Below are positions 3,681-16,899 of a DNA stretch of 64,000 bases, one piece after another. The first letter of the stretch is position 1. Each line of letters opens with the position of its first letter. The stretch lies in NCBI GenBank assembly GCA_029553375.1, contig JAKPCH010000096.1, forward strand, positions 47,382 through 111,381, written 5' to 3'. The DNA comes from Deltaproteobacteria bacterium. GTDB lineage: Bacteria > Desulfobacterota > Syntrophia > Syntrophales > UBA8958. The position numbers and the translations under genes are program-made. Below the pieces are notes generated by a model that was not told the DNA's origin, made no database searches, and saw nothing but the letters and a program-made list of their open reading frames with translations.

Positions 3681-4082
3681 ATGTCCAGGGACGGGGAAAA
3701 TCATCTCAAGGAAACGGTTTTGAGGCTCCGCCGGGAGTTGGAACGGGAGAGGCAGCGGCGCGACGAGGCGGTGGCCGAGGCGACGGCGTCGGCGAGGGAC
3801 GAGACGAGGCTGTTGAGGGAGCAGATACAGGCCATGAGGGAGGCCATGGAGAGGGAGGCGGAGGAGAAGGAAAGTCAAAAACGACAGGCCCTTTCCGAGG
3901 CCCATGGCGAGGTCTTGCAGCTGAGGGCCATGGTGGACGCCCTGCGGACGGAGATGGAGAGGGAGAGGGGCGAATACCTGCGCAGGATGGACGAACTCAA
4001 GAGGGAACAGGCCGCCGAGGTGAGGCAGCTGCGGGAACAGATTAGGGTGTTGAGGGAAAAGCTGGAGGCCCATGAAGGTTAA
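3681..4082 (+). CDS. hypothetical charged coiled-coil protein
   Basis: 133 aa, highly charged helical sequence (RRELERERQRRDEAVAEA...REQIRVLREKLEAHEG). AAGGGAG RBS. The 3' end overlaps the next gene's ATG (4072) by 11 nt. No recognisable domain. Confidence 0.5.
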   Translation: MSRDGENHLKETVLRLRRELERERQRRDEAVAEATASARDETRLLREQIQAMREAMEREAEEKESQKRQALSEAHGEVLQLRAMVDALRTEMERERGEYLRRMDELKREQAAEVRQLREQIRVLREKLEAHEG

Positions 4083-6378
4083 AACAGGTAAGGTGGTGGA
4101 GAAGACGGACAACGACGATCGCAACGCCGCGGCGACGGACAAGGAGGTCCGACTCCACCAGGCGGAACTTCTCCTCAACGTCTCGCGGACCATGGCGACC
4201 TTCGAACGCCTCGACGAGATGCTGGAGTTCCTCGTGTCGGCCACGACGCGGGAGATCGGTGCGGAGAGGGGGACCATCTTCCTCAACGACGCCGAAACGG
4301 GGGAGCTTTACTCCCGCGTCGCCATGGGGGACCTCAAGAGGGAGATCCGTATACCCAACGACAGCGGCATCGCCGGTTACGTGTTCAAAAACGGGGAAGG
4401 CCTGATCGTTCACGACGCCTATAGAGACGGTCGTTTCAACCGTTCCGTCGACGACTCCACGGGCTTCAGGACGAAGAGCATCCTCTGCGTGCCCGTCAAG
4501 ACCATGAGGGGGGAGATCATCGGCGTCGCCCAGATGCTGAACAAGGCGCGAGGTCGCTTCACCAAGAAGGATATGAACCTGCTGAGCGGCATGACCACCC
4601 AGGCGGCGATCACCCTCCAGGGGTTCGACATCGTCGAGCGCATGACCAGGGTCCGGAAGCGGGAGATGGAGTTTTTCGACATCGTCTCCGACGTCACCGC
4701 CGAGATCGACCTGGCCGTCCTCCTGAGGAAGGTGATGGCCGAGGCCACCAAGATGCTCAACGCCGAGCGCTCCACCCTCTTTCTCAACGACGAGCGGAAG
4801 GGGGAACTCTTCTCCAAGATCGGTGAGGGCCTGGGGGCCACGGTGATCCGTTTCCCCAATCATCTGGGGATCGCGGGGGCCGTCTTCCAGTCGGGGGAGA
4901 CGATCAACATCCCCTACGCTTACGCCGATCTCCGCTTCAACCCCGCCTTAGACCGACAGACGGGTTTCTTCACCCGTTCCATCCTCTGTGTCCCCGTCGT
5001 GAACAAGAACGGCAAGATCATCGGGGTGACCCAGGTCCTCAACAAGAAGGGGGGGCAGTTCACCAAGGAGGACGAGTCCCGCCTGAGGGCCTTCACGGCC
5101 CAGATATCCATCGCCCTGGAAAACGCCAAGTTCTTCGACGACGTCCAGAACATGAAGAACTACAGCGAGAGCATGCTGGAGAGCATGTCCAACGGCGTGA
5201 TCACCCTGGACGACGCGGGGAGGATCGTGACGTGCAACACGGCGGGGCTGAGGATAATGGCCATGGAGGCCGACCAGGTGATCGGCAAGCCGGCGGCGGA
5301 GTTCTTCTCCGGGGACAATGCCTGGCTCCTCGAAAGGATAAACCGTATCGAGGGGTCGGCCAAGACGGAGGTCGTCATGGACGTCGGTCTGAGGTTGGGC
5401 GGGACGGACATATTCGCCAACGTCACCGTCCTTCCCCTGAAGAACATCGACGGGCGTCACCTGGGGACGATGATCATCATCGACGACATCAGCGGCGAGA
5501 AGAGAATGAAATCGACCATGTCGCGCTACATGGACCCGGATCTGGCCGACCGGCTCCTGGCGGGGGGCGACGATATCTTGGGCGGCAGGAGCGCCGTGGC
5601 CACCATCCTCTTCTCGGACATCCGCGGTTTCACCACCCTCACGGAAGAGCTCGGCGCCCAGGGCACCGTGGCCCTCCTCAACGAGTATTTCACCATCATG
5701 GTCGAGTCTATCCAGAAGGAGGGGGGGATGCTCGACAAGTTCATCGGTGACGCCATCATGGCCGCCTTCGGCGTCCCCGTCCCCCACGACGACGACGAGG
5801 ACCGGGCGGTGAGGGCCGCCGTCGCCATGATCAAGGCCCTGAACCGTTGGAACGCGAAACGTCAGGCCGAGGGCAAGAAACCGGTGGGGATGGGTATCGG
5901 CCTGAACACGGACACGATCGTTTCGGGCAACATCGGCTCCCCGAAGCGCATGGATTACACCCTCATCGGCGACGGCGTAAACCTGGCGTCCCGCCTCGAG
6001 GGTCTATGCAAGCGGTACCACGCGAGCATCTTGATCAGCGAGTTCACCTACGGGCGCCTCAAGGGGACCTACCGGATCCGGGAGGTGGACAGGGTCGTCG
6101 TCAAGGGCAAGACGCAAACCGTGGGTGTTTACGAAGTCCTGGATCACTACGACGAGGAGGCCTTCCCCAACGTCATGGCCGCCGTCAACTACACCCACGA
6201 GGGTCTCAACCACTATCGCCGCGGCGAATGGGACCAGGCCATCGCGGCCTTCGGCGAGGTATTGCGACAGACGCCGGGGGACAAACTCTGTCGCATGTAC
6301 ATCGACCGGTGTCGCTACCTGAAGGAGCACCCCCCGGTTGATGGTTGGGACGGCGTCTGGGTGATGGATTCCAAATAG
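4072..6378 (+). CDS. GAF-GAF-PAS sensor class III adenylate cyclase with short helical C-terminal tail
   Basis: 768 aa. Two GAF-like repeats (RGTIFLNDAETGELYSRV... and RSTLFLNDERKGELFSKI...). A PAS-like segment (MLESMSNGVITLDDAGRIVTCN). Cyclase core ATILFSDIRGFTTLTE...LDKFIGDAIMAAFG...DYTLIGDGVNLASRLE. Confidence 0.9.
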   Translation: MKVKTGKVVEKTDNDDRNAAATDKEVRLHQAELLLNVSRTMATFERLDEMLEFLVSATTREIGAERGTIFLNDAETGELYSRVAMGDLKREIRIPNDSGIAGYVFKNGEGLIVHDAYRDGRFNRSVDDSTGFRTKSILCVPVKTMRGEIIGVAQMLNKARGRFTKKDMNLLSGMTTQAAITLQGFDIVERMTRVRKREMEFFDIVSDVTAEIDLAVLLRKVMAEATKMLNAERSTLFLNDERKGELFSKIGEGLGATVIRFPNHLGIAGAVFQSGETINIPYAYADLRFNPALDRQTGFFTRSILCVPVVNKNGKIIGVTQVLNKKGGQFTKEDESRLRAFTAQISIALENAKFFDDVQNMKNYSESMLESMSNGVITLDDAGRIVTCNTAGLRIMAMEADQVIGKPAAEFFSGDNAWLLERINRIEGSAKTEVVMDVGLRLGGTDIFANVTVLPLKNIDGRHLGTMIIIDDISGEKRMKSTMSRYMDPDLADRLLAGGDDILGGRSAVATILFSDIRGFTTLTEELGAQGTVALLNEYFTIMVESIQKEGGMLDKFIGDAIMAAFGVPVPHDDDEDRAVRAAVAMIKALNRWNAKRQAEGKKPVGMGIGLNTDTIVSGNIGSPKRMDYTLIGDGVNLASRLEGLCKRYHASILISEFTYGRLKGTYRIREVDRVVVKGKTQTVGVYEVLDHYDEEAFPNVMAAVNYTHEGLNHYRRGEWDQAIAAFGEVLRQTPGDKLCRMYIDRCRYLKEHPPVDGWDGVWVMDSK

Positions 6379-6626: not shown

Positions 6627-6661
6627 TTTGTCGTTTTGTCATGCCGGAGAAGGGGGGATCG

Positions 6662-8914
6662 ATGAAAGAGCGATTGAAAAAGATCGCGGCCTTGTCACCG
6701 TTGAAGATAACCCTGATCATCATTGGCTTGGCCGTGTTTCTCTTTTTTCTCGACCCCCCCTTCCTGCGTTTCATGGAGTTGAAGGCCCTGGATCTGCGGA
6801 TGGTCTTCCGGGGCCAGATGCCCACGACGGGGGCCGTGGTCATAGCCACGGTGGACGAGAAGAGCCTCAGCGAGATCGGGCGTTGGCCCTGGTCGCGCAA
6901 CGTCATCGCCCGCCTGGTGGATATCCTGAAGGAGGACGGGGCCAAATCCATCGCCTTCGATATCGTGTTCTCCGAACCGGACGACAACGCCAGCCTGAAG
7001 ACGATCAGGGAGTTGACGTCTGAGCTGAAACGGAAGGGGATCGGGGACCCGCGCCTCGAGAAGCTCCTGCAGGAAAAGAAAGCCCAGGCGGACACGGACA
7101 GCATCCTCGCCCAGGCCATCGCCAGGGCCCAGAACGTCACGGCGGGCTTCTTTTTCTATACGACCCCCAGGGAGGTCGCCCACTTCACCAAGGAGAAGAT
7201 CGAGGAGGGCCGGGAGTTGGTGGCCAATTCCCGCTATCCCATGGTGCAGGCCAGGGGTAAGGTGGACGAGGGCAACCTGATCCATGCCTACGCCGCCGTG
7301 CCCAACCTGAAGGTGATCTCCGAAGCCGCCGTGAATAGCGGTTATTTCAACGCCTTTCCCGACACGGACGGCGTGATCCGCTGGTCCCCTTTAGTGGTGA
7401 AGTTCGGGGACAGTTACCACTACTCCCTCGCCATGGGGGCCCTCCTCCAGTTCACCGACATGCCCATGTCGGGGGTCCGGCTCACTGACTTCGGGGTGGA
7501 ATCCGTCGTCGTCGGGGATGTCATGATACCCGTCGACGAGAGCGGCCGGATCCTCATCAACTACCTGGGCCCGGCCAAGACCTTCCCCCACTACTCCATC
7601 GCCGACATCCTGAAGGGTCGCCTCCCCCCGGGGACCTTCAGGGACCGCATCGTCATCGTCGGCGCCACGGCGACGGGTATCTACGACTTGCGGGTCACGC
7701 CCTTCAGCAACGTCTACCCGGGGATCGAGATCCACGCCAACGTCATCGACAACATCCTCAGCGGCAACTTTCTCGAACATTCCGGTTGGACCACCTTCCT
7801 GGACGTCTGTTCCATCGTGGTCTTCGGCCTCGTCATGGGGCTGGCCGTCCCCCGCCTGAGGGCGCTTTACGGCGTCTTGGCCAGCCTGCTCGTCATCGGC
7901 GTCTTCGTGACGGCCAACGCCCTGGTCTTCGCCCACTACCGGGTCTGGATGAACGTGGTTTACCCCGTCCTGACCATGATGACCGTCTACCTCATGATCA
8001 CCGTCTATCGTTACGTCACGGAAGAGAGGGAGAAGAAGAAGATCCGCGGGGCCTTCCAGTACTACCTCACCCCGGCGGTCATCAACGAGGTCCTCCAGGA
8101 CCCGTCGAAGCTGAAGCTCGGCGGGGACAAGAAAGACCTCTCCGTCATGTTTTCCGATATCCGGGGGTTCACCACCATCTCGGAGAAGCTGACACCGGAG
8201 CAGCTGGTCAGCCTCCTCAACGAGTACCTCACGGCCATGACGGAGAAGGTGTTCAAGTACGACGGCCTCCTGGACAAGTATATCGGCGACGCCATCATGG
8301 CCGTCTTCGGCGCCCCCATCGACCAGCCGGACCACGCCTTGCGGGCCTGCCGGACGGCCCTCGACATGATGGAGGAGCTCAGGCGTCTCCAGGTGAAATG
8401 GGAGCAGGAGGGGTGGCCCAGGATCGACATCGGCGTCGGGATCAACAGCGGCGACATGGTGGTGGGCAACATGGGATCCGACATGCGCTTCGATTACACC
8501 GTCATGGGCGACAACGTCAACCTCAGCTCCCGCCTGGAGGGGATCAACAAGGAGTACGGCACCCATATCGTCATCAGCGAGTACACCTACGAGAGGGTGA
8601 AGGATTTCATGTACTGCCGCGAGCTGGACTCGGTGAGGGTCAAGGGGAAGAAGCTGCCCGTGAAGATCTACGAACTCATCTGCGAGAAGGAAAAGGCCCA
8701 CGAACACGAACCGTACGTGAAGCTCTTCGAGGAGGCCCTCTCCCTCTACAGGCAATGTCGGTGGGACGAGGCGATCGCCATGTTCCGGAGGGTCATGGAG
8801 ACCCGTCCCGGCGGCGACCCCACCTCGGAGATCTATATCCAGAGGTGCCTCGACCTCAAGAACGATCCGCCGCCCCAACCGTGGGACGGTGTCTATACCA
8901 TGACGAGGAAATAG
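6662..8914 (+). CDS. CHASE2 sensor, multi-TM class III adenylate cyclase with short helical C-terminal tail
   Basis: The ORF-track frame starts at 6641; the likely start is 6662. CHASE2-like N-terminal periplasmic region (LKALDLRMVFRGQ...VIATVDEKSLSEIGRWPWSRNVIARLVDIL...SIAFDIVFSEPD). A TM block follows, then the cyclase core LSVMFSDIRGFTTISE...LDKYIGDAIMAVFG...DYTVMGDNVNLSSRLE. Confidence 0.9.
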   Translation: MKERLKKIAALSPLKITLIIIGLAVFLFFLDPPFLRFMELKALDLRMVFRGQMPTTGAVVIATVDEKSLSEIGRWPWSRNVIARLVDILKEDGAKSIAFDIVFSEPDDNASLKTIRELTSELKRKGIGDPRLEKLLQEKKAQADTDSILAQAIARAQNVTAGFFFYTTPREVAHFTKEKIEEGRELVANSRYPMVQARGKVDEGNLIHAYAAVPNLKVISEAAVNSGYFNAFPDTDGVIRWSPLVVKFGDSYHYSLAMGALLQFTDMPMSGVRLTDFGVESVVVGDVMIPVDESGRILINYLGPAKTFPHYSIADILKGRLPPGTFRDRIVIVGATATGIYDLRVTPFSNVYPGIEIHANVIDNILSGNFLEHSGWTTFLDVCSIVVFGLVMGLAVPRLRALYGVLASLLVIGVFVTANALVFAHYRVWMNVVYPVLTMMTVYLMITVYRYVTEEREKKKIRGAFQYYLTPAVINEVLQDPSKLKLGGDKKDLSVMFSDIRGFTTISEKLTPEQLVSLLNEYLTAMTEKVFKYDGLLDKYIGDAIMAVFGAPIDQPDHALRACRTALDMMEELRRLQVKWEQEGWPRIDIGVGINSGDMVVGNMGSDMRFDYTVMGDNVNLSSRLEGINKEYGTHIVISEYTYERVKDFMYCRELDSVRVKGKKLPVKIYELICEKEKAHEHEPYVKLFEEALSLYRQCRWDEAIAMFRRVMETRPGGDPTSEIYIQRCLDLKNDPPPQPWDGVYTMTRK

Positions 8915-10876
8915 GTGCCGTCGGTGGGAGAAGGACACAACTACCGCAGCTGGGTCGAGGTGGACCTGGACAGTTTCTCGAAGAACTGGGAGGAACTGAA
9001 GCGCCTCGTGGCGCCCGGCGTCAAGATCATGCAGGTGGTCAAGGCCGACGCCTACGGGCACGGGTCCCTTGAGATCGCCCAGAAGGCCGTACAGAACGGG
9101 GCTTGCTGTCTCGGCGTGGCCAACGCCGACGAGGGGGTCCAACTCCGGGTGGGGGGCATTCAGGAGCCCATCGTCATCTTGAGCCCTTCCCCCGGGGGGG
9201 AGATCGGCGAGATCATCAAGTACAACCTGACCCCTTCCGTTTCGGACCTCGCCTTCGCCGGGGAACTACAGGCGGCGTGCCGCAAGGCGGCCATCCGCCT
9301 GCCGATCCACGTCGAGGTGGACACGGGCATGGGGAGAGGCGGTATCCTCTACTACGAGGCCATGAACAGTATCCGGGAGGTGGCCGCCATGCCCAACCTG
9401 GTCCTCCAGGGGGTGTTCACCCACCTCTCCTCCAGCGAGATCCGCGTCGATTACAACGACATCCAGTGGAAGCTCTTCCGTGACCTCCTCGACGGCCTCG
9501 AGGCGGCGGGGATCAGGGTGCCCATGAGGCACATGTCCAACAGCGGCGCCATCCTCAACTACCCCGCCTTCAACCTCGACATGGTCCGGCCCGGTCTCAT
9601 GACCTACGGCATCTACCCCTCCCTCGAGACGAGGGAGCGGGCCGCTCTTTCCCCCGTCATGTCCTTCAAGACCCGCGTCGTCCTCCTGAAGGACTTTCCC
9701 CGGGGGTACAGCATCGGTTACAACCGAACCTACATCACCGAGCGGCCGACGCGCATCGCCACCATCCCCATCGGTTACGGCGACGGCTACGGCGTCATCC
9801 TGTCCAATTCCGGCGAGGTCCTCATCAGGGGTCGGCGGGCCCCCGTCGTGGGGAGGGTTTCCATGGACATGTGCACCGTCGATGTCTCCCGGATCCCCGA
9901 GTGTGCCCTGGGCGACGAGGTGGTCCTCATGGGCGCCCAGGGCGGCGAGGAGATAACGGCCAACGACGTGGCGGACCGGGTCAAGACCATCACCTACGAG
10001 ATCCTCTGCGCCCTGGGGAAGAGGGCGCCGCGGGTCTTCATCCAGAAGGGGAGGGCCGACGCCGTCCTGCCGCGGCTCCGGCGCATCTACATCCCCGACG
10101 AGGAGAAATCCATCGCCAGGATCGATAACATCATCCGCCGGTGTCTCCAGGCCCGGACCAGGAGCGAGGAGCTGGGCGACGCCATCTACTACGAGATGTT
10201 CGAGACCCTCTTCGGCAGGGAGGGCCGTCAACTGGAGCTGCGTGAGGACTTTCGCTATCACATTGAAGTGGAGGCCGTCGCGCCGCAGGAGGGGAGAAGG
10301 GGCTGGCACGACAAGGACAACCTGGGGGTGACGACCCGCGTCGAGTACCGCAAGATCCTCCGCCACAGCCGCTTCATCATCGCCTGCGCCCTGGACAACG
10401 AGCAGCTGGACGCCCTCTTCGACGAACCCCGATGCGAGTATCGCTGGCTCATGAACAGGGGCGAGGACCCCGTGATGGAGCGGGACTTCCGGGTGGCGAG
10501 GGTCGCCGTGGACGGCCTGGAGGTCCCCGTCCTCGAGGCCCTCTGCACCGGAAGGGGTTACGAGATCACCTGCGGCAACGGTGAGTTGGAGGGAAAACTC
10601 AATAAGCCGGTCAATTTCTCCATCGAGATCGTCACGAGGAAATCACGGCGCAATAACATCTTCTCCGTCTATCTCGTCTACCCGACCCGGGGGCTCGAGA
10701 TCACCTTCGACTACGGGAAGGCGGGATTGAAAAACGTGCGGGAGGTCAGCTTTTTTGCCGGCAAGCACCCCAAACCCGAGATCGAACGGGTGAAGGGCAA
10801 GGGCATTACCCTGAAGATCCCCGCCGAGAACTGGATCTTCCCCACGAGCGGTGTGACCTTTATCTGGGATAATTAG
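8915..10876 (+). CDS. alr: alanine racemase fused to a ~280-aa C-terminal domain of unknown function
   Basis: One uninterrupted 653-aa ORF. The first ~372 aa are Alr (PLP-Lys motif VVKADAYGHG, IPIGYGDGYG, GRVSMDMCTVDV, ends ...YEILCALGKRAPRVFIQ). Residues ~375-653 match nothing I recognise. GTG start directly abuts the cyclase stop (8912..8914), with a GAGGA RBS. Confidence 0.85.
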   Translation: MPSVGEGHNYRSWVEVDLDSFSKNWEELKRLVAPGVKIMQVVKADAYGHGSLEIAQKAVQNGACCLGVANADEGVQLRVGGIQEPIVILSPSPGGEIGEIIKYNLTPSVSDLAFAGELQAACRKAAIRLPIHVEVDTGMGRGGILYYEAMNSIREVAAMPNLVLQGVFTHLSSSEIRVDYNDIQWKLFRDLLDGLEAAGIRVPMRHMSNSGAILNYPAFNLDMVRPGLMTYGIYPSLETRERAALSPVMSFKTRVVLLKDFPRGYSIGYNRTYITERPTRIATIPIGYGDGYGVILSNSGEVLIRGRRAPVVGRVSMDMCTVDVSRIPECALGDEVVLMGAQGGEEITANDVADRVKTITYEILCALGKRAPRVFIQKGRADAVLPRLRRIYIPDEEKSIARIDNIIRRCLQARTRSEELGDAIYYEMFETLFGREGRQLELREDFRYHIEVEAVAPQEGRRGWHDKDNLGVTTRVEYRKILRHSRFIIACALDNEQLDALFDEPRCEYRWLMNRGEDPVMERDFRVARVAVDGLEVPVLEALCTGRGYEITCGNGELEGKLNKPVNFSIEIVTRKSRRNNIFSVYLVYPTRGLEITFDYGKAGLKNVREVSFFAGKHPKPEIERVKGKGITLKIPAENWIFPTSGVTFIWDN

Positions 10877-10888
10877 GAAGGTTTGTTC

Positions 10889-11947
10889 ATGGCGCGTCTG
10901 AGAGTCGGGATCATCCTGGGCGGTATGTCATCGGAGCGGGAGGTGTCCCTGAACAGCGGCAGGAATGTTTACGACAACCTCGATCGGGAGGCCTACGAGG
11001 CCGTCCCCGTCTTCATGGACCTGAAGGGGAACCTGTGGATCATACCCTGGCAGCTCATCTCCCAGAACACGACTACGGATATCTCCGAACGATTGGCGGG
11101 TGAGGCCCGCCCCATCGGGTACGAGGACCTGAAGGAGGAGATCGATTTCGCCTTCATCTCCCTCCACGGGAAGTACGGGGACGACGGGTGCATCCAGGGG
11201 TTGCTGGAACTCCTGGGGATCCCCTACACGGGCCCGGGTGTCCTGGCCTCGGCCCTCGGTATGGACAAGCACATCCAGCAGAGCATCCTGAAGGCCGAGG
11301 GCCTCGACGTCCCCCGGAGTCACGTTGTCACCATCGAGGATTGGCGGAGGGACTCCCGGGCGGTGAAAAATAATCTGTTGACCCTCTTCCCCCCGCCCTT
11401 TTTCGTCAAGCCCACCCGGGAGGGTTCGAGCGTCGGGGTCCGGGCCGTCCGTGAAGAGGGGGATATAGAGACGGCCCTCGAAGAGGCCTTCCGGTGGGAT
11501 CTCAAGGCCCTGGTGGAGGAGTACCTCGACGGCATAGAGTTCTCTTGCATCGTCCTCGAGGACGAGGGGGAGGTACGGTATCTCGACGTGACGGAGATCC
11601 ACCCCCAGAGCGATTTCTACACCTATGACGACAAATACATGCCCGGTCGCTGCCGCAAGTTCACGCCCCCGAAAAACATCCCGCCCGAGATGACGTCAAA
11701 GATCGGGGAGATGGCCGTAAGGGCCTTCAAGGCCTTGGGTTTCAGGTCTTACGGGCGGATAGACGGTTTCGTCCTGAAGGACGGGCGCATCCTCATCACC
11801 GATCCCAACTCGTCGTCGGGCATGGCCCCTTCTTCCTTCTTCTTTGAACAGGCGGCCAGCGCCGGCATGCTGCCGTCCATGATCATCTCGAGGCTTATAG
11901 AAAACGCCCTGGCGATCCATCGGGGTAAAAAAGGCCCCCTGTGCTGA
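10889..11947 (+). CDS. ddl: D-alanine--D-alanine ligase (ATP-grasp), paralog 1
   Basis: [19 protein letters not shown]..., [64 protein letters not shown]. ATG 10889 follows an AGGAAGG RBS; the track frame begins at TTG 10883. Confidence 0.85.
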   Translation: [352 protein letters not shown]

Positions 11948-11989
11948 GGGGCAGGGGATAAAATCCGGTCTGAAAGGAGAGACGGAATC

Positions 11990-12778
11990 ATGAAGACAAA
12001 ACGGTCGGTAAAGTGGCTCCATGGATGTTTGACGGCGCTTTTTGTTCTTTTCGCCGCCGCGGGAACGGCGGGGGCCTTCGAGTTGGGTGTCCGGGCCTAC
12101 GCCTGGTTCCCCGACCTCAAGACCTCGGAGATCCAGACGATCCAGAACGCCGCCGAGGGGACGAAGATCGACGCCAAGGACGTCTTGGGTGTCGGCAACA
12201 AGGCCCTCTTCATCGGTGAGATCTACGGCGGCCTGGGGAAGCACCACGGCAGTTTCACCTATACCCCCGTCGGCTACTCGGACGACAAGATCATCCCGAC
12301 GGACATTACCTTCAACGGCGTCACCTTCACCCGTAACAGTTCCGTGAAGACGGAGATCGGCTACGCCATGCTCGATTTCAAGTACCAGTACGACATCGTC
12401 AACATGGAGAACATCCTCGCCGGTTTCTCTTTCGGTCCCATGGCCCAGGTCAAGTTCTCCACGGGGGAGACGAAGTTGAACGCGGCGGGGGGCACGGAGC
12501 AGAAAAAATCCTTCTCCTCCATCCTGCCCATGGTGGGCGTGGGGGCCCACGTCGGCCTCATCGCCAACCTCTTGGAGGCCCGGGCCCAGGTGACGGGCGG
12601 CGGTTACGGCGGCGGCAACTACGCCGTGGAGGCCCTCGCCGATATCTCCGTCACCCCCTTCCCCTTCGTGGATATCAACGCCGGGTACAAGGCGGTCAAG
12701 CTGAAGATGGACGTCAATGACTACGTGATGGATCAGTTCCTCACCGGTCCTTACGTGGCCTTGACGGTCGGCTTCTGA
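11990..12778 (+). CDS. putative outer-membrane beta-barrel protein with signal peptide
   Basis: 262 aa. N-terminal signal peptide (LTALFVLFAAAGTAGA/FE), alternating beta-strand-like sequence, Gly-rich loops, and a C-terminal aromatic residue (…ALTVGF), as is typical of OMPs. Family not recognised. Confidence 0.55.
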   Translation: MKTKRSVKWLHGCLTALFVLFAAAGTAGAFELGVRAYAWFPDLKTSEIQTIQNAAEGTKIDAKDVLGVGNKALFIGEIYGGLGKHHGSFTYTPVGYSDDKIIPTDITFNGVTFTRNSSVKTEIGYAMLDFKYQYDIVNMENILAGFSFGPMAQVKFSTGETKLNAAGGTEQKKSFSSILPMVGVGAHVGLIANLLEARAQVTGGGYGGGNYAVEALADISVTPFPFVDINAGYKAVKLKMDVNDYVMDQFLTGPYVALTVGF

Positions 12779-12789
12779 GAGGGGCGGCC

Positions 12790-13854
12790 GTGGGAGAAAC
12801 GAAGGAAAGGATAAGGGTCGGTGTCATCATGGGGGGCATGTCCTCGGAGAAGGAGGTCTCCCTCGAGAGCGGCAGAAATATCTTCAGCAAGATGGACCGC
12901 CGGCGTTACGATCCCCTTCCCATCTTCATGGACAGCCGGGCGCGCCTGTGGGAGATACCCCTCAAGCTCCTCATGAGGAATTCCACGAAAGACATAGAAG
13001 AGGACCTGGAGAACGAGGCCGTCCGCCTGCCCTACGAGTCCCTGAGGGAGAGGGTGGAGGTGGTCTATCTCGGTCTCCACGGCAAATACGGCGAGGACGG
13101 CTGCGTCCAGGGCCTCCTGGAGCTCCTCGGGGTCCCCTATACCGGCTCGGGGGTCTTGGCCTCGGCCATCGGCATGGACAAGTACACGACCCGCCGTATC
13201 CTGACGATCAACGGGATCGACGTCCCGAGGACGGTGGCGGTGAGGGAGAAGGAGTGGGCCGGCGGGGGAAGGGAGGAGATCCTGGAGAGGATCGCGGCGG
13301 AGATCTCGTATCCCTGCGTGGTGAAACCCATCAGGGAGGGATGCAGCACCGCCGTGAAGAAGGTGGTGTCCCCGGCGGGTCTGCCCGCGGCCCTCGAGGG
13401 GGCCTTCGTCTGGGACGAGATGGCCCTCGTGGAGGAGTTCATAGAGGGCGTCGAGGTGACCTGCGGTATCCTGGGAGACGATCCCCCCGTCCCCCTCGTG
13501 CCCTCCGAGACGATCCCCACGCAGGACATCCTGTCCCTGGAGGACAAGTTCCTCTACGGCCAGGGGGAAAACAAGACACCGGCGCGGGTGCCGCCGGAGG
13601 TCCTCAAGAGGATCCAGGAGACGGCCCTGGCCACTTTTTCGGCCCTCGACCTGAAGGGCTACGCCCGGATCGACATGTTCGTCCGGGCCGACGGCCGGGT
13701 GGCCGTTCTGGAACCCAACACCCTGCCGGGCATGACGCCTTCGACGGTCCTGTTTCACCAGGCCGCCGCCTTAGGCATCACCCAGACGGAGTTGATCACC
13801 CGGGTGATCGAGGCGGCGATGAAGGCCCACAGGGAAAAGAAGGGGCCCCTGTGA
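12790..13854 (+). CDS. ddl: D-alanine--D-alanine ligase family protein, paralog 2 (atypical active-site triad)
   Basis: Same architecture and length (354 aa) as paralog 1 ([57 protein letters not shown]). It reads [11 protein letters not shown] (Cys codon 13342..13344) and LEDKFLYG (Phe codon 13549..13551) where paralog 1 and E. coli DdlB have Ser and Tyr. Confidence 0.8.
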   Translation: [354 protein letters not shown]

Positions 13855-13858
13855 GTCT

Positions 13859-14638
13859 ATGAACTTCGTCCTGGGCGCCGTCGATTACGTAGGGAGGGCC
13901 GTCCTCCACTCCGTGGAGGAGGCGGGGAGGATCTTTCAGCTCTTCCTTTCCGTCCTGGCCTGGCTCGTCCGCCCTCCTTTGAGGCTCCGTCCCATCTTCA
14001 AGCAGATGGAGTTCGTCGGCGTCCGCTCGATCTTCGTCGTGGTCCTGACGGGGACCTTCACGGGCATGGTCCTGGCCCTCCAGACCTACCACGGCTTCAG
14101 GATGTTCAGCGCCGAGAGCATGGTGGGGGCCACCGTCGCCCTGAGTATGACCAGGGAGCTGGGGCCCGTCCTGACGGCCCTCATGGTGACGGCGAGGGCG
14201 GGATCGGCCATGGCCGCCGAACTGGGCACGATGAGGGTCACGGAACAGATCGACGCCCTTTACGTCATGGCGGCCAATCCGGTGAAATACCTCATCGTCC
14301 CCCGGATGGTCGCCTCGGTGGTCATGCTCCCCTTCTTGACCATCGTCTCCGATTTCGTCGGCGTGGTGGGGGGCTATTTCGTGGGCGTCCACCTCTTGAG
14401 GATCAACTCCGGTATCTTCATGAAGAACATCACCAAGATCGTGGAGTTGGACGATATCTTCAACGGCCTCATCAAGGCCGCCTTCTTCGGCCTCATCCTC
14501 TCCTTGATCGGCTGTTACAAGGGCTTCAACACCACGGGGGGCGCCGAGGGCGTGGGCAGGGCGACGACGGAGGCCGTCGTCCTGGCGTCCGTCATGATCC
14601 TCATCAGCGACTATTTCCTGACGGCCTTGATGTTTTAA
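13859..14638 (+). CDS. mlaE: MlaE-type ABC transporter permease (phospholipid/outer-membrane lipid asymmetry system)
   Basis: 259 aa, MlaE/Ttg2B pattern (GVRSIFVVVLTGTFTGMVLALQ...TRELGPVLTALMVTARAGSAMAAELGTMRVTEQIDAL). Confidence 0.9.
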   Translation: MNFVLGAVDYVGRAVLHSVEEAGRIFQLFLSVLAWLVRPPLRLRPIFKQMEFVGVRSIFVVVLTGTFTGMVLALQTYHGFRMFSAESMVGATVALSMTRELGPVLTALMVTARAGSAMAAELGTMRVTEQIDALYVMAANPVKYLIVPRMVASVVMLPFLTIVSDFVGVVGGYFVGVHLLRINSGIFMKNITKIVELDDIFNGLIKAAFFGLILSLIGCYKGFNTTGGAEGVGRATTEAVVLASVMILISDYFLTALMF

Positions 14639-14646
14639 CGGCGGCG

Positions 14647-15393
14647 ATGATACAGATTATAGACATACATAAATCCTTCGGGCGGCAAAAGGTCCTCGAC
14701 GGCGTCGACCTCGACATCGAGGCCGGCAAGACGACGGTCATCATCGGCAGGAGCGGCGGCGGCAAGAGCGTCTTGTTGAAGCACATCATAGGCCTCCTGA
14801 AGCCGGACAGGGGCCAGATCCTCGTGGAAGGGGTGGACATAACGAAACTAAACGACCGGGACCTGAACGAGATCCGCAAGAAGTTCGGGATGCTCTTCCA
14901 GGAGGCGGCCCTGTTCGACTCCATGACGGTGGGTGATAACGTGGCCTTCCCCCTGCGGGAGCACGCCCGGATGTCCGAGGCGGAGATAAGGGAAATCGTG
15001 GCCGACCGGCTGCGGGCCGTGGGTCTGTCGGGAGTGGAGGCGAAGATGCCTTCCGAGCTGAGCGGGGGCATGCGCAAACGTGTCGGTCTCGCCCGGGCCA
15101 TCGCCATGAGACCCCGGATCGTCCTCTTCGACGAGCCGACGACGGGTCTCGACCCGGTGATGACGGAGGCCATCAATCAGTTGATCATCGACACCCAGAG
15201 GAATTACGACCTCACCTGCGTCGTCATCAGTCACGACATCCAGTCCATATTCCGGATAGGTCACAGGATCGCCATGCTCTACGAGGGCAAGATCGTGGCT
15301 TCGGGGACGCCCGACGAGATCAGGGCGTCTCAGAATCCGGTGGTAAGGCAGTTTCTTTCCGGTAGCATCGAGGGGCCCATAAAGATTATCTGA
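14647..15393 (+). CDS. mlaF: MlaF-type ABC transporter ATP-binding protein
   Basis: Walker A GRSGGGKS, ABC signature LSGGMRKRVGLARA, Walker B IVLFDEPTTGLD. Confidence 0.9.
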   Translation: MIQIIDIHKSFGRQKVLDGVDLDIEAGKTTVIIGRSGGGKSVLLKHIIGLLKPDRGQILVEGVDITKLNDRDLNEIRKKFGMLFQEAALFDSMTVGDNVAFPLREHARMSEAEIREIVADRLRAVGLSGVEAKMPSELSGGMRKRVGLARAIAMRPRIVLFDEPTTGLDPVMTEAINQLIIDTQRNYDLTCVVISHDIQSIFRIGHRIAMLYEGKIVASGTPDEIRASQNPVVRQFLSGSIEGPIKII

Positions 15394-15417
15394 ACGGGGC
15401 CCGGCGGGGGTATCGAT

Positions 15418-16899
15418 ATGTTTTCCATAAGTTCGGAGGCCAAGGTCGGGTTGTTCGTCCTCATCGGCATGATCATCCTGGCCTATATGTCCTTTCAGGT
15501 GGGTCAAAGGGGTTTCACCTTCAAGAAGGGATACCTCGTCGAGGTTCAATTCGACAACGCCTCGGGCCTGGCCCCCGACGCCTCCGTTCAGATCGCGGGC
15601 GTCGAGGTGGGCCGTGTGGAAGCCATCAGGCTCAAGGACGGCAAGGCCCTGGTCACCCTCCGCCTGCCGCGGGAGATCAAGCTGGAGAAGGACGTGACGG
15701 CGGCCATCAAGACCCACGGCATCCTGGGGGACAAGTACGTCGAGATCATCCCGGGGACGGCCGGCAAGGAGGCCTTGCAGCCCGGCGAGAGGATCGAGAG
15801 GGTCGAGCGCCAGGCGGATGTCGACCGGCTTCTCAACCAATTGGCCGCCATCGCCGAGGACGTCAAGGCCGTCACGGGTTCCCTGAGCAAGGTGATGGGG
15901 GGTAAAGAGGGTGTCGACACCCTGGGCGCCATCCTCGAGAACACCCGCCAGCTGACGAGGAATCTCAACATGGTGGTGAAGAGCAACGAGGCCAACCTAC
16001 GGGCCATGCTCGAGAACACCCGGGAGCTCACGGGCAATCTCAACCGCATCGTCGTCCAGAACGACGAGAAGGTGGGCCAGGTGATAGACAACCTCAAGAC
16101 GGCCTCCAAGGAGATGGAGAAGACCTTCGCCGCCCTCAGCGAGATCACGGCGACCGTCAAAGGCGGGGAGGGGACCCTGGGACAGCTGATCAAGGATCGG
16201 CAGATGGCCGAGCGGCTCAGCAAGACCATGGCCTCCCTCCAGGAGGTTTCGGACAAGATCAATTCGGGGCGGGGGACCATCGGCAAGCTGGTGAACGACG
16301 AGGAGACGGTCAACAACCTCAACCAGAGCCTCTCCGGCCTCAACCGTTACATAAACAAGACGGAACAGTTCCGGACCTACATCGGCTATCGGGGGGAATA
16401 CCTCCTCGACAAGAGCGACGCCAAGAGCTACGTGGATCTTCGCATCCAGTCGCGCCAGGATTACTTCTACCTCCTGGGCCTGGCCGTGGACCCCCGGGGG
16501 AGGAGGACGGAGCGCGAGTCGACGACCAACAACGTCACGACCCGCACGGAGGAATGGGACAAGCAAGGCCTCCTTTTCAACGCCCAGCTGGGTAAACGTT
16601 TCAAGGATTTCGTCGTGAGGGGGGGTATCATGGAGTCTTCGGGAGGCGTGGGCGTTGATTTCCTGACCTTCAAGGATCGGTTGAAACTGACCTTCGAGGC
16701 CTTCGACTTCTCTCGGGATCGCAAGACCCACCTCAAGACGGGAGGGGAACTGAGGATCTTCAAGAACATCTATCTCAACGCCGGTTGGGACGACTTCATC
16801 AGCGACCAGGGGAACAGCTCCCCCTACGTGGGCATCTCCATCCGCTTCGAGGACGAGGATCTGAAGTACCTCATGGGCTCCGTCCCCGTTCCCAAGTAG
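15418..16899 (+). CDS. mlaD: MCE-domain protein (MlaD family), long form with helical repeats and a beta-rich C-terminal domain
   Basis: N-terminal TM (VGLFVLIGMIILAYM) and MCE domain (VEVQFDNASGLAPDASVQIAGVEVGRVEAIRL). Repeated ENTRxLTxNLN helical segments follow, then a ~170-aa Tyr/Gly/Asp-rich tail. Confidence 0.8.
   Translation: MFSISSEAKVGLFVLIGMIILAYMSFQVGQRGFTFKKGYLVEVQFDNASGLAPDASVQIAGVEVGRVEAIRLKDGKALVTLRLPREIKLEKDVTAAIKTHGILGDKYVEIIPGTAGKEALQPGERIERVERQADVDRLLNQLAAIAEDVKAVTGSLSKVMGGKEGVDTLGAILENTRQLTRNLNMVVKSNEANLRAMLENTRELTGNLNRIVVQNDEKVGQVIDNLKTASKEMEKTFAALSEITATVKGGEGTLGQLIKDRQMAERLSKTMASLQEVSDKINSGRGTIGKLVNDEETVNNLNQSLSGLNRYINKTEQFRTYIGYRGEYLLDKSDAKSYVDLRIQSRQDYFYLLGLAVDPRGRRTERESTTNNVTTRTEEWDKQGLLFNAQLGKRFKDFVVRGGIMESSGGVGVDFLTFKDRLKLTFEAFDFSRDRKTHLKTGGELRIFKNIYLNAGWDDFISDQGNSSPYVGISIRFEDEDLKYLMGSVPVPK

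Follow-up and report, generated by a model that had tools for sequence, protein, structure and literature searches.

Alanine racemase (Alr), D-alanine-D-alanine ligase (Ddl) and MurF are long-established targets of antibiotics (D-cycloserine, glycopeptide resistance), and canonical Alr enzymes (Alr/DadX; e.g. 4Y2W, 1SFT) end at about 360-390 amino acids. Two described systems carry an extra part: in the membrane-bound VanT serine racemases of VanC/E/G/L/N-type glycopeptide-resistance clusters the extra domain is an N-terminal multi-pass membrane domain, and in the bifunctional MurF-Alr enzymes (NF008897 / PRK11930) a known Mur ligase precedes the racemase. Here we describe a racemase extended at its C-terminus. 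It is encoded in a 64,000-nucleotide stretch of a Syntrophales genome (assembly GCA_029553375.1, contig JAKPCH010000096.1, positions 47,382 to 111,381), the whole of which was analysed and is called the window below. Judged by its sequence, the protein joins a known enzyme to a module from a hitherto unannotated domain family, and this module is probably a regulatory or docking part of the D-Ala-D-Ala pathway that has not been described before.

How does this locus compare with the described systems? Like VanT, the window protein is an Alr-family racemase with an extra domain, encoded together with a D-Ala-D-X ligase, but its extra part is C-terminal and is predicted to be a soluble helix-plus-beta unit with no transmembrane (TM) segment. 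The racemase part scores 340 bits against the VanT-G catalytic model NF033131 (cutoff 460) and 212.8 against NF033132 (cutoff 900), and no gene for VanXY, VanR or VanS adjoins the fused alr in the window. With both scores below cutoff and no membrane domain, a VanT-type serine racemase was rejected. In MurF-Alr, too, Alr is naturally fused to part of the D-Ala-D-Ala branch, but there the partner is an N-terminal enzyme and here it is an unannotated, apparently non-catalytic C-terminal module. Only the Alr part of NF008897 (profile positions 458-821) is matched, at 323 bits against a cutoff of 804; lacking a Mur ligase part, the protein is not a bifunctional MurF-Alr enzyme. Both systems are useful analogies, in that racemases of the Alr family acquire extra domains in D-Ala-D-X contexts, and by such analogy MurF-Alr shows that the D-Ala-D-Ala pathway can tolerate and select such fusions.

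The fused gene and its conservation

The complete fused gene occupies 8915..10876 of the plus strand: 653 codons from a GTG start, then a TAG stop, with a Shine-Dalgarno sequence (GAGGA, 8903-8907) 7 nucleotides (nt) 5' of the start. The original prediction had read it as a single unbroken open reading frame (ORF) of 653 residues, which ORF analysis bears out, and the five peptide strings it quoted were all found, at residues 361-377, 390-412, 486-542, 582-619 and 646-653. Residues 1-374 (8915..10036, +) make up the catalytic part, with a TIM-barrel N domain and a beta C domain. In Pfam, Ala_racemase_N (PF01168) covers residues 16-235 (E 4e-65, 220 bits, cutoff 24.1) and Ala_racemase_C (PF00842) residues 248-374 (E 3e-48, 162.9 bits, cutoff 25), close to the predicted end of a complete Alr domain near residue 372; in NCBIfam, the equivalog model TIGR00492 'alr' is matched at 358.7 bits (cutoff 168). 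By all sequence tests applied, this half is an alanine racemase family member. The best solved relative, PDB 4Y2W (388 residues), aligns with residues 13-379 only (E 2.8e-92). Because the Alr domains and this alignment end at ~374-379, residues 375-653 (nt 10037-10873, stop codon at 10874-10876) are extra: the protein is a full-length canonical racemase, with both Pfam domains and all pyridoxal phosphate-binding and catalytic residues, to which 279 residues are added as what the models below depict as a separately folded module.

Is the racemase half a working enzyme? Residues K43, Y47, R141, H170, S210, R225, G227, Y269, Y288, M317, D318 and Y361 are invariant in 77/77 fused proteins, distant ones included. 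We take them to be equivalent to K39, Y43, R136, H166, S204, R219, G221, Y265', Y284', M312', D313' and Y354 of the Geobacillus stearothermophilus enzyme, a correspondence drawn by motif rather than by structural superposition. Since 12/12 canonical active-site residues are kept in every fused protein, the racemase half appears intact and should be active.

The tail is conserved to a similar degree. Queried by itself in a word-indexed search, the tail brought up 111 proteins from Syntrophales, Smithellaceae and Syntrophobacteraceae-type metagenome-assembled genomes (MAGs); most of these also carry Ala_racemase_C, none exceeds 475 residues, and some long contigs hold pieces only. When one genome per GTDB species was scanned, the tail proved to be encoded in at least 289 stretches, 80 of which, all Syntrophales-type, were fetched as loci. 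Where the context is complete, a stop-to-stop ORF of 649-730 codons spans Alr residues ~3-375 and the tail in one frame at nearly all loci, save for contig ends, runs of N and isolated insertions or deletions at differing positions. An uninterrupted, collinear orthologue of 646-660 residues, 61-71% identical to the window protein, is present in 65 of the 80 loci. Across these 65 full-length orthologues, which come from different species, the tail alone retains 57-65% amino-acid identity, a degree of conservation that a frame left open by chance in GC-rich DNA would not show. Mean identity of the orthologues to the window protein is 66% for Alr_N, 76% for Alr_C, 71% for residues 375-396, 81% for residues 397-433, 58% for the beta-rich domain and 15% for a loop at residues 455-468. 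The tail is thus under purifying selection comparable to that on the enzyme.

Could a sequencing or assembly error, namely the loss of a stop codon or a shift of frame around nt 10030, have created the fusion, or is the tail a remnant in decay? Many database relatives are fragmentary, and on some related contigs the gene is split in two. These splits, however, lie elsewhere, at Alr residues ~162-290, and stem from N-gaps or single-base insertions or deletions of individual assemblies: in L002 the fused gene is broken by a run of N, in L001 by a one-base insertion in the Alr part (CAA-CGGG-CGC for the expected CAA-TGG-CGC), and L031, L040 and L053 carry other single breaks, each at a different place. 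The unbroken fusion recurs in 65 independent species-level assemblies, and divergent Alr-module fusions are also found in Cloacimonadota and Gemmatimonadota. A remnant, moreover, would not be conserved as much as the enzyme or share its GC content at third codon positions (0.87 in the tail, 0.91 in the Alr part, with neighbouring genes alike). Because no relative examined shows a break at the Alr-tail junction, an assembly error near 10030 is excluded, and we give the artefact or remnant explanation practically no weight. Recoding, by selenocysteine or by a programmed frameshift, was likewise rejected, given that the split relatives reflect N-gaps or single-base insertions or deletions within the Alr part.

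As a separate observation, the fused gene is interrupted around Alr residue ~175-186 in four metagenome assemblies that are independent of one another: by a one-base insertion (L001:1880-1910), by an N-gap (L002:2760-2790) and, in two cases, in gene calls that start with 'MQW' (P0008, P0108). Other loci have their breaks at other places. The sequence here could be locally difficult for assemblers.

The fold of the module and its likeness to M1 aminopeptidases

The tail had been said to match no recognised family, and no curated family matches it: single-sequence and profile searches of Pfam, NCBIfam (E <= 1), PADLOC (E <= 0.1) and PDB sequences (E <= 10) left it unmatched. Plasmid records contain no match to the tail or to a relative with two TM helices, and a full-text literature search returned no description of an extended Alr or of the module, an absence there that is not proof of absence. 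The predicted lack of a TM segment is borne out by a maximum Kyte-Doolittle 19-residue mean of 1.19 for the whole protein.

An AlphaFold2 model of the tail alone, built on a 60-sequence alignment, is confident, with a mean predicted local distance difference test score (pLDDT) of 82 and a predicted template modelling score (pTM) of 0.80. In it a linker with little order leads into two helices, followed by a single large beta domain of about 16 strands, in agreement with the earlier guess of a mixed alpha, then beta-rich, layout. The linker (residues 375-396, 10037..10102, +; ...PRLRRIYIPDEEKSI...) is conserved and specific to Alr fusions; P386, L388, R389, R390, P394 and S399 in this region are nearly invariant. 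Because its pLDDT is below 50 in both the tail-only and the full-length model, it would be either a flexible tether or a contact site missed in the monomer. The helical hairpin (residues 397-433, 10103..10213, +; model helices 400-415 and 418-433) is present in all module architectures and is the best-conserved segment of the whole protein in Syntrophales. The beta-rich domain (residues 443-653, 10241..10873, +) has a pLDDT of 85-96 in most 10-residue blocks and closes with a family signature, W-x-F-P-x-S-G-V-x-F-x-W. The poorly conserved loop noted above (10277..10318, +) varies in length and is modelled as a surface loop, with low pLDDT at 462-464. In the full-length monomer model (pLDDT 85.6, pTM 0.60) two well-folded halves are seen with no confident contact between module and Alr, and packing of the linker on the Alr body in cis is unsupported, at least in the monomer. 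Taken together, the models indicate that the module is a discrete folded unit outside any known family.

What does this unit resemble? Foldseek against the PDB gave 184 matches at E <= 0.001, and the best 50 of the 184 are all M1-family zinc aminopeptidases or LTA4 hydrolases, headed by 6A8Z, a two-domain M1 enzyme of Deinococcus radiodurans (E 1.6e-6). Among viral predicted structures (BFVD), two giant-virus proteins alone match significantly, an M1-like aminopeptidase (E 2.3e-6) and an uncharacterised protein of 792 residues (E 3.6e-4). Since all targets share an all-beta N-terminal domain, the part matched is, in our view, most likely the N-terminal beta domain of the M1 enzymes. The resemblance, as modelled, is specific but weak: TM-scores are 0.31-0.39, with a root-mean-square deviation of 5-8 A over about 245 aligned columns. 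It does not extend to sequence. Pfam's Peptidase_M1_N is matched neither by the tail (E <= 1) nor by 76 diverse modules (E <= 10), hhalign of the module profile against residues 1-450 of E. coli PepN gives a probability of 0.2%, and a module profile search of PDB sequences finds no M1 enzyme; sequence homology to the M1 N domain was rejected on these results. Neither the window protein nor the rest of the window holds an HExxH-x18-E catalytic domain.

The significant structural matches to the module are thus M1 enzymes (the family of PepN, LTA4 hydrolase, ERAP and 6A8Z), at E about 1e-6 in both PDB and BFVD, and the module differs from the M1 N domain in possessing an N-terminal helical hairpin. 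Distant branches of the module are encoded beside a protein with an M1-like HExxH-x15-EEGxAE motif, whereas the window protein has no peptidase domain and no HExxH...E partner in the window. Because such a partner accompanies these distant branches, the M1 analogy may be more than coincidence, and the module may work like an M1 N domain, as a beta domain shaping a binding channel for a peptide terminus.

A module family and its neighbourhoods

A profile search of 1.84 billion cluster representatives recovered 326 proteins with the module at E <= 1e-3. Several divergent clusters of 615-671 residues join it to Alr, in Syntrophales, Gemmatimonadota and Cloacimonadota MAGs, and are labelled plain 'alanine racemase' in the source records. 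The attachment to Alr is therefore routine in Syntrophales and in some Cloacimonadota and Gemmatimonadota, but the domain attached is not a described one. Behind other N-terminal parts the module is more common still: the majority architecture consists of 2-3 N-terminal TM helices and the module, in about 350-420 residues, and by the positive-inside rule its module would be cytoplasmic, which is consistent with the cytoplasmic Alr fusions. Other members place the module behind a minimal class III cyclase, which fits Pycsar PycC models about as well as Pfam Guanylate_cyc, or behind a TIR-like domain with an N-terminal 'FISY' motif and a weak ThsB_TIR match (21.4 bits, cutoff 21.2). In PADLOC-DB v2 the N-terminal cyclase parts of distant relatives match PycC (best E 4e-11) and the TIR-like parts ThsB (best E 7e-4); the tail has no match there, nor do the gluzincin-like and C39-like partner proteins introduced below.

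In a set of 126 diverse modules, conservation falls almost entirely on W, F, P, G and Y, with W640, P643, G646, F649 and W651 kept in more than 87%, and no constellation of Cys, His, Asp, Glu or Ser is common to them. Residues R443, L498, Y509, R510 and S645 are essentially invariant in four cell-wall-linked groups, namely two Alr-fused groups, a Ddl-operon group and a dcw group, and make up a candidate binding motif; in the groups paired with a peptidase, W stands at 443, Y/F at 498 and G at 645, while 509 varies. Such a branch-specific Tyr-Arg pair would be expected of a site for a carboxylate-bearing ligand.

The original prediction had offered two functions for the tail, a regulatory or ligand-binding module and a second enzymatic activity, of which the data favour the first. 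Were the tail an enzyme in its own right, with D-amino acids or small peptides as substrates, the protein would be bifunctional as the MurF-Alr fusions of model PRK11930 are. Several polar residues (K480, E508, Y509, R510 and S645) are invariant within the Alr-fused groups, and the tail's structural matches are indeed peptidases. The M1 part matched, however, is most likely the N domain, which is non-catalytic; metal and nucleophile motifs, HExxH included, are absent from the tail; and no catalytic-type residue is conserved family-wide. The module also stands behind TM helices, TIR-like and cyclase domains, as is typical of a regulatory module. Because a family-wide catalytic residue set is lacking and the N-terminal partners vary, non-catalytic sensing or docking is favoured over a second enzyme, which we regard as quite improbable.

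In the window, the fused gene stands, as predicted, between a sensor cyclase and two Ddl paralogues. Upstream is a CHASE2-domain class III nucleotidyl cyclase (6641..8914, +; PF05226 CHASE2 and PF00211), whose stop TAG (8912-8914) abuts the alr GTG at 8915 in the same operon. Downstream is ddlA (10883..11947, +; NF002528 282.6 bits, cutoff 262; TIGR01205 270.6, cutoff 245.65; Pfam Dala_Dala_lig_N and _C), with a likely start at ATG 10889, 12 nt past the alr stop. The second paralogue, ddlB (12790..13854, +; NF002528 288.7 bits), is 46% identical to ddlA and keeps its position in many Syntrophales loci. Where the flank of a Syntrophales locus is long enough, the gene directly upstream of the fused alr is a cyclase orthologue at 47 of 63 loci and the one directly downstream encodes a Ddl at 54 of 73; 37 of 60 loci have both.

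The link to the cyclase is thus real as synteny and is echoed by the cyclase-module fusions. Does the module then sense the nucleotide made by the CHASE2 cyclase, so that envelope signals switch Alr through cAMP, cGMP or another cyclic nucleotide monophosphate (cNMP)? The abutting genes, their recurrence in 47/63 loci and the module's fusion to minimal PycC-like cyclase domains in another branch would all suit such a receiver. Yet neither the tail nor 76 family members match cNMP_binding, GAF or any other nucleotide sensor in Pfam or NCBIfam, the Ddl/MurF-like/M15 operons described below and the Cloacimonadota fusions have no cyclase nearby, and a cyclase fusion would fit an input sensor equally well. 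We consider a nucleotide receiver improbable, slightly less so than a second enzyme.

Further features of the window were noted around this operon. The CHASE2 cyclase is the second of two class III cyclases in tandem, the first (4072-6378, +) being a GAF-GAF-PAS-cyclase whose synteny extends to some Syntrophales loci. The two cyclases share 43% identity over their last ~295 residues, a stretch that takes in a similar post-cyclase extension of ~80 residues ending in ...PP(V/Q)(D/P)GWDGV(W/Y).M. Just upstream of the first cyclase, a 133-residue ORF (3681-4082, +) has extreme Arg/Glu repeats (…RELERERQRRDEAVAEA…EMERERGEYLRRMDELKREQAAEVRQLREQIR…) and looks coiled-coil-like. The two ddl genes (10883-13854, +), both above the Ddl subfamily cutoffs, flank a 262-residue gene that weakly resembles the TIGR04219 outer-membrane beta-barrel (43 bits, cutoff 105), and this layout recurs in many Syntrophales loci. 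Directly after ddlB, and syntenic in many relatives, comes an mlaE-mlaF-mlaD-like operon (13859-16899, +), in which the MlaD-like protein is long (493 residues) and has its MlaD domain at residues 38-113 only.

Beyond Syntrophales, the TM-anchored forms have neighbours of their own. Two distinct clusters with 3 TM helices (P0129/P0267 and P0120) share an operon of alpha/beta-hydrolase, MurF-like ligase, Ddl, TM-anchored module and Peptidase_M15, with gaps of 12-241 nt; the NCBI record of P0129 gives Leptolinea sp. as the source. By NCBIfam, the MurF-like ligase falls just under its subfamily cutoff (253 bits), the Ddl lies above its own, and the DdpX/VanX-like dipeptidase lies below. In a distant group with 2 TM helices (P0149, module about 24% identical) the module gene lies within a dcw-type cluster in the order rsmH, small ORF, penicillin-binding protein, MurE-like ligase, M15, hydrolase, MurF-like ligase, TM-anchored module, 74-residue ORF, Ddl.

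The operon of alpha/beta-hydrolase, MurF-like ligase, Ddl, TM-anchored module and DdpX/VanX-like M15 dipeptidase was located at L088:3951-9978, L091:1290-7040 and L095:3998-9239, from Chloroflexota-type and other MAGs. At these loci the N-terminal ~130-180 residues of the MurF-like ligase are unmatched by MurF models, and the whole resembles a van-like precursor-remodelling cluster without VanH.

The more distant branches keep different company. Groups 6 and 8, with 2 TM helices, and the cyclase fusions are paired with a protein of about 350-400 residues that bears the invariant HExxH-x15-EEGxAE motif; it matches no Pfam family significantly, and its motif is, as a sequence, a gluzincin-type zinc-peptidase signature close to that of M1. 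A Peptidase_C39_2-like protein adjoins the module gene in L093 and in a locus of the TIR group, L097. Two- or three-gene cassettes of a module protein (with 2 TM helices or a PycC-like cyclase) and the HExxH partner were seen at L083:3053-5575 and L093:1-3017 and in L098, L099, L100, L101, L103 and L106, with a B12/radical-SAM gene upstream of the cassette in L083. These effector-plus-peptidase cassettes look like an undescribed conflict or stress system. No M15 peptidase, MurF-like ligase, alpha/beta-hydrolase or gluzincin partner is encoded in the window; the +-8 kb flanks of the 80 Syntrophales loci hold none either, except at one locus, which has a single alpha/beta-hydrolase match. Scanning metagenomes with a narrow module alignment gave only 11 loci. 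In a Cloacimonadota locus of the Alr-module fusion (L109:8001-12675), a PhoH-like ATPase gene lies upstream, TM1266-like and radical-SAM/BATS genes lie downstream, and a Peptidase_M55 gene (PF04951) stands about 2 kb off on the other strand.

The module and the D-Ala-D-Ala branch

What, then, does the module do? Genomic associations point to the D-Ala-D-Ala branch consistently, though not universally, and the module in the window protein's branch may well be dedicated to that arm of peptidoglycan precursor synthesis. The reading we prefer, with a probability of roughly 0.45, is that the module is a non-catalytic sensor or docking part that couples Alr to the D-Ala-D-Ala branch by binding a metabolite or an enzyme. 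From context and conservation we infer its non-catalytic nature, its binding partner and the regulation or localisation of Alr. Linker, hairpin and a beta domain of ~190 residues would form an accessory permanently joined to a working racemase. This accessory would recognise either a ligand from the pathway (a small amino acid or peptide that bears a carboxylate, for instance D-Ala-D-Ala or a UDP-MurNAc-peptide) or one of the pathway's enzymes, for instance Ddl or MurF. Hairpin and linker would pass the signal on, the activity or location of the Alr dimer would be adjusted, and D-Ala supply would be matched to D-Ala-D-Ala demand, in an operon headed by what is presumably an envelope-facing CHASE2 sensor cyclase.

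The same gene neighbourhoods would serve equally for a module that purely docks Alr with Ddl and/or MurF into a D-Ala metabolon, without sensing a small molecule, and whose paralogues with a TM anchor would keep these enzymes at the membrane close to MraY. The TM-anchored forms hold little besides anchor and module, the module is predicted to be cytoplasmic, where Ddl and MurF act, and a nearly invariant yet unstructured linker would suit a partner-binding motif. On the other hand, the fusion persists where Ddl is not adjacent, and the invariant branch-specific Tyr-Arg pair is more like a small-ligand site than an interface, a weak argument. A pure scaffold is in our view unlikely, but it is the most serious competitor to a sensor or docking part.

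Several points weigh against coupling to the D-Ala-D-Ala branch by sensing or docking. The ligand or partner is putative. The context evidence from the TM-anchored forms comes from a handful of loci only, in Smithella-type loci Ddl is not adjacent to the fused alr, and the Cloacimonadota locus L109 has neither a Ddl nor a cyclase beside the fusion. Because other branches join the module to effector-type partners (TM, TIR-like and PycC-like cyclase parts), its ancestral role may be unrelated to the cell wall. On the structural side, the monomer model gives no confident module-Alr contact, and the M1 likeness has low TM-scores with no echo in Peptidase_M1_N or in the hhalign comparison with PepN.

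A bolder idea, to which we give about as little credence as to the pure scaffold and if anything less, goes further. In it the tail is the founder of a family of cytoplasmic sensors, distant kin of the M1 N domain, that read a short peptide with a free terminus, which in the cell-wall branch would be D-Ala-D-Ala or a muropeptide precursor. If so, the Alr fusion would place D-Ala synthesis under direct product-feedback control, in an operon headed by an envelope-sensing cyclase, and the TM, TIR-like and cyclase fusions, with their gluzincin-like peptidase, would be undescribed peptide-triggered conflict or stress systems.

Why does the module matter? The annotation 'alanine racemase' alone conceals 40% of the polypeptide, and behind it lies a sizeable unannotated domain family of 326 cluster representatives. 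The curated libraries searched hold no model of a dedicated regulatory or scaffolding domain for the D-Ala-D-Ala branch. Kept across a whole order of syntrophic bacteria and recurring in other phyla beside genes for Ddl, MurF-like ligases and D-Ala-D-Ala dipeptidases, the module is a concrete, testable candidate for a regulator or scaffold of that branch.

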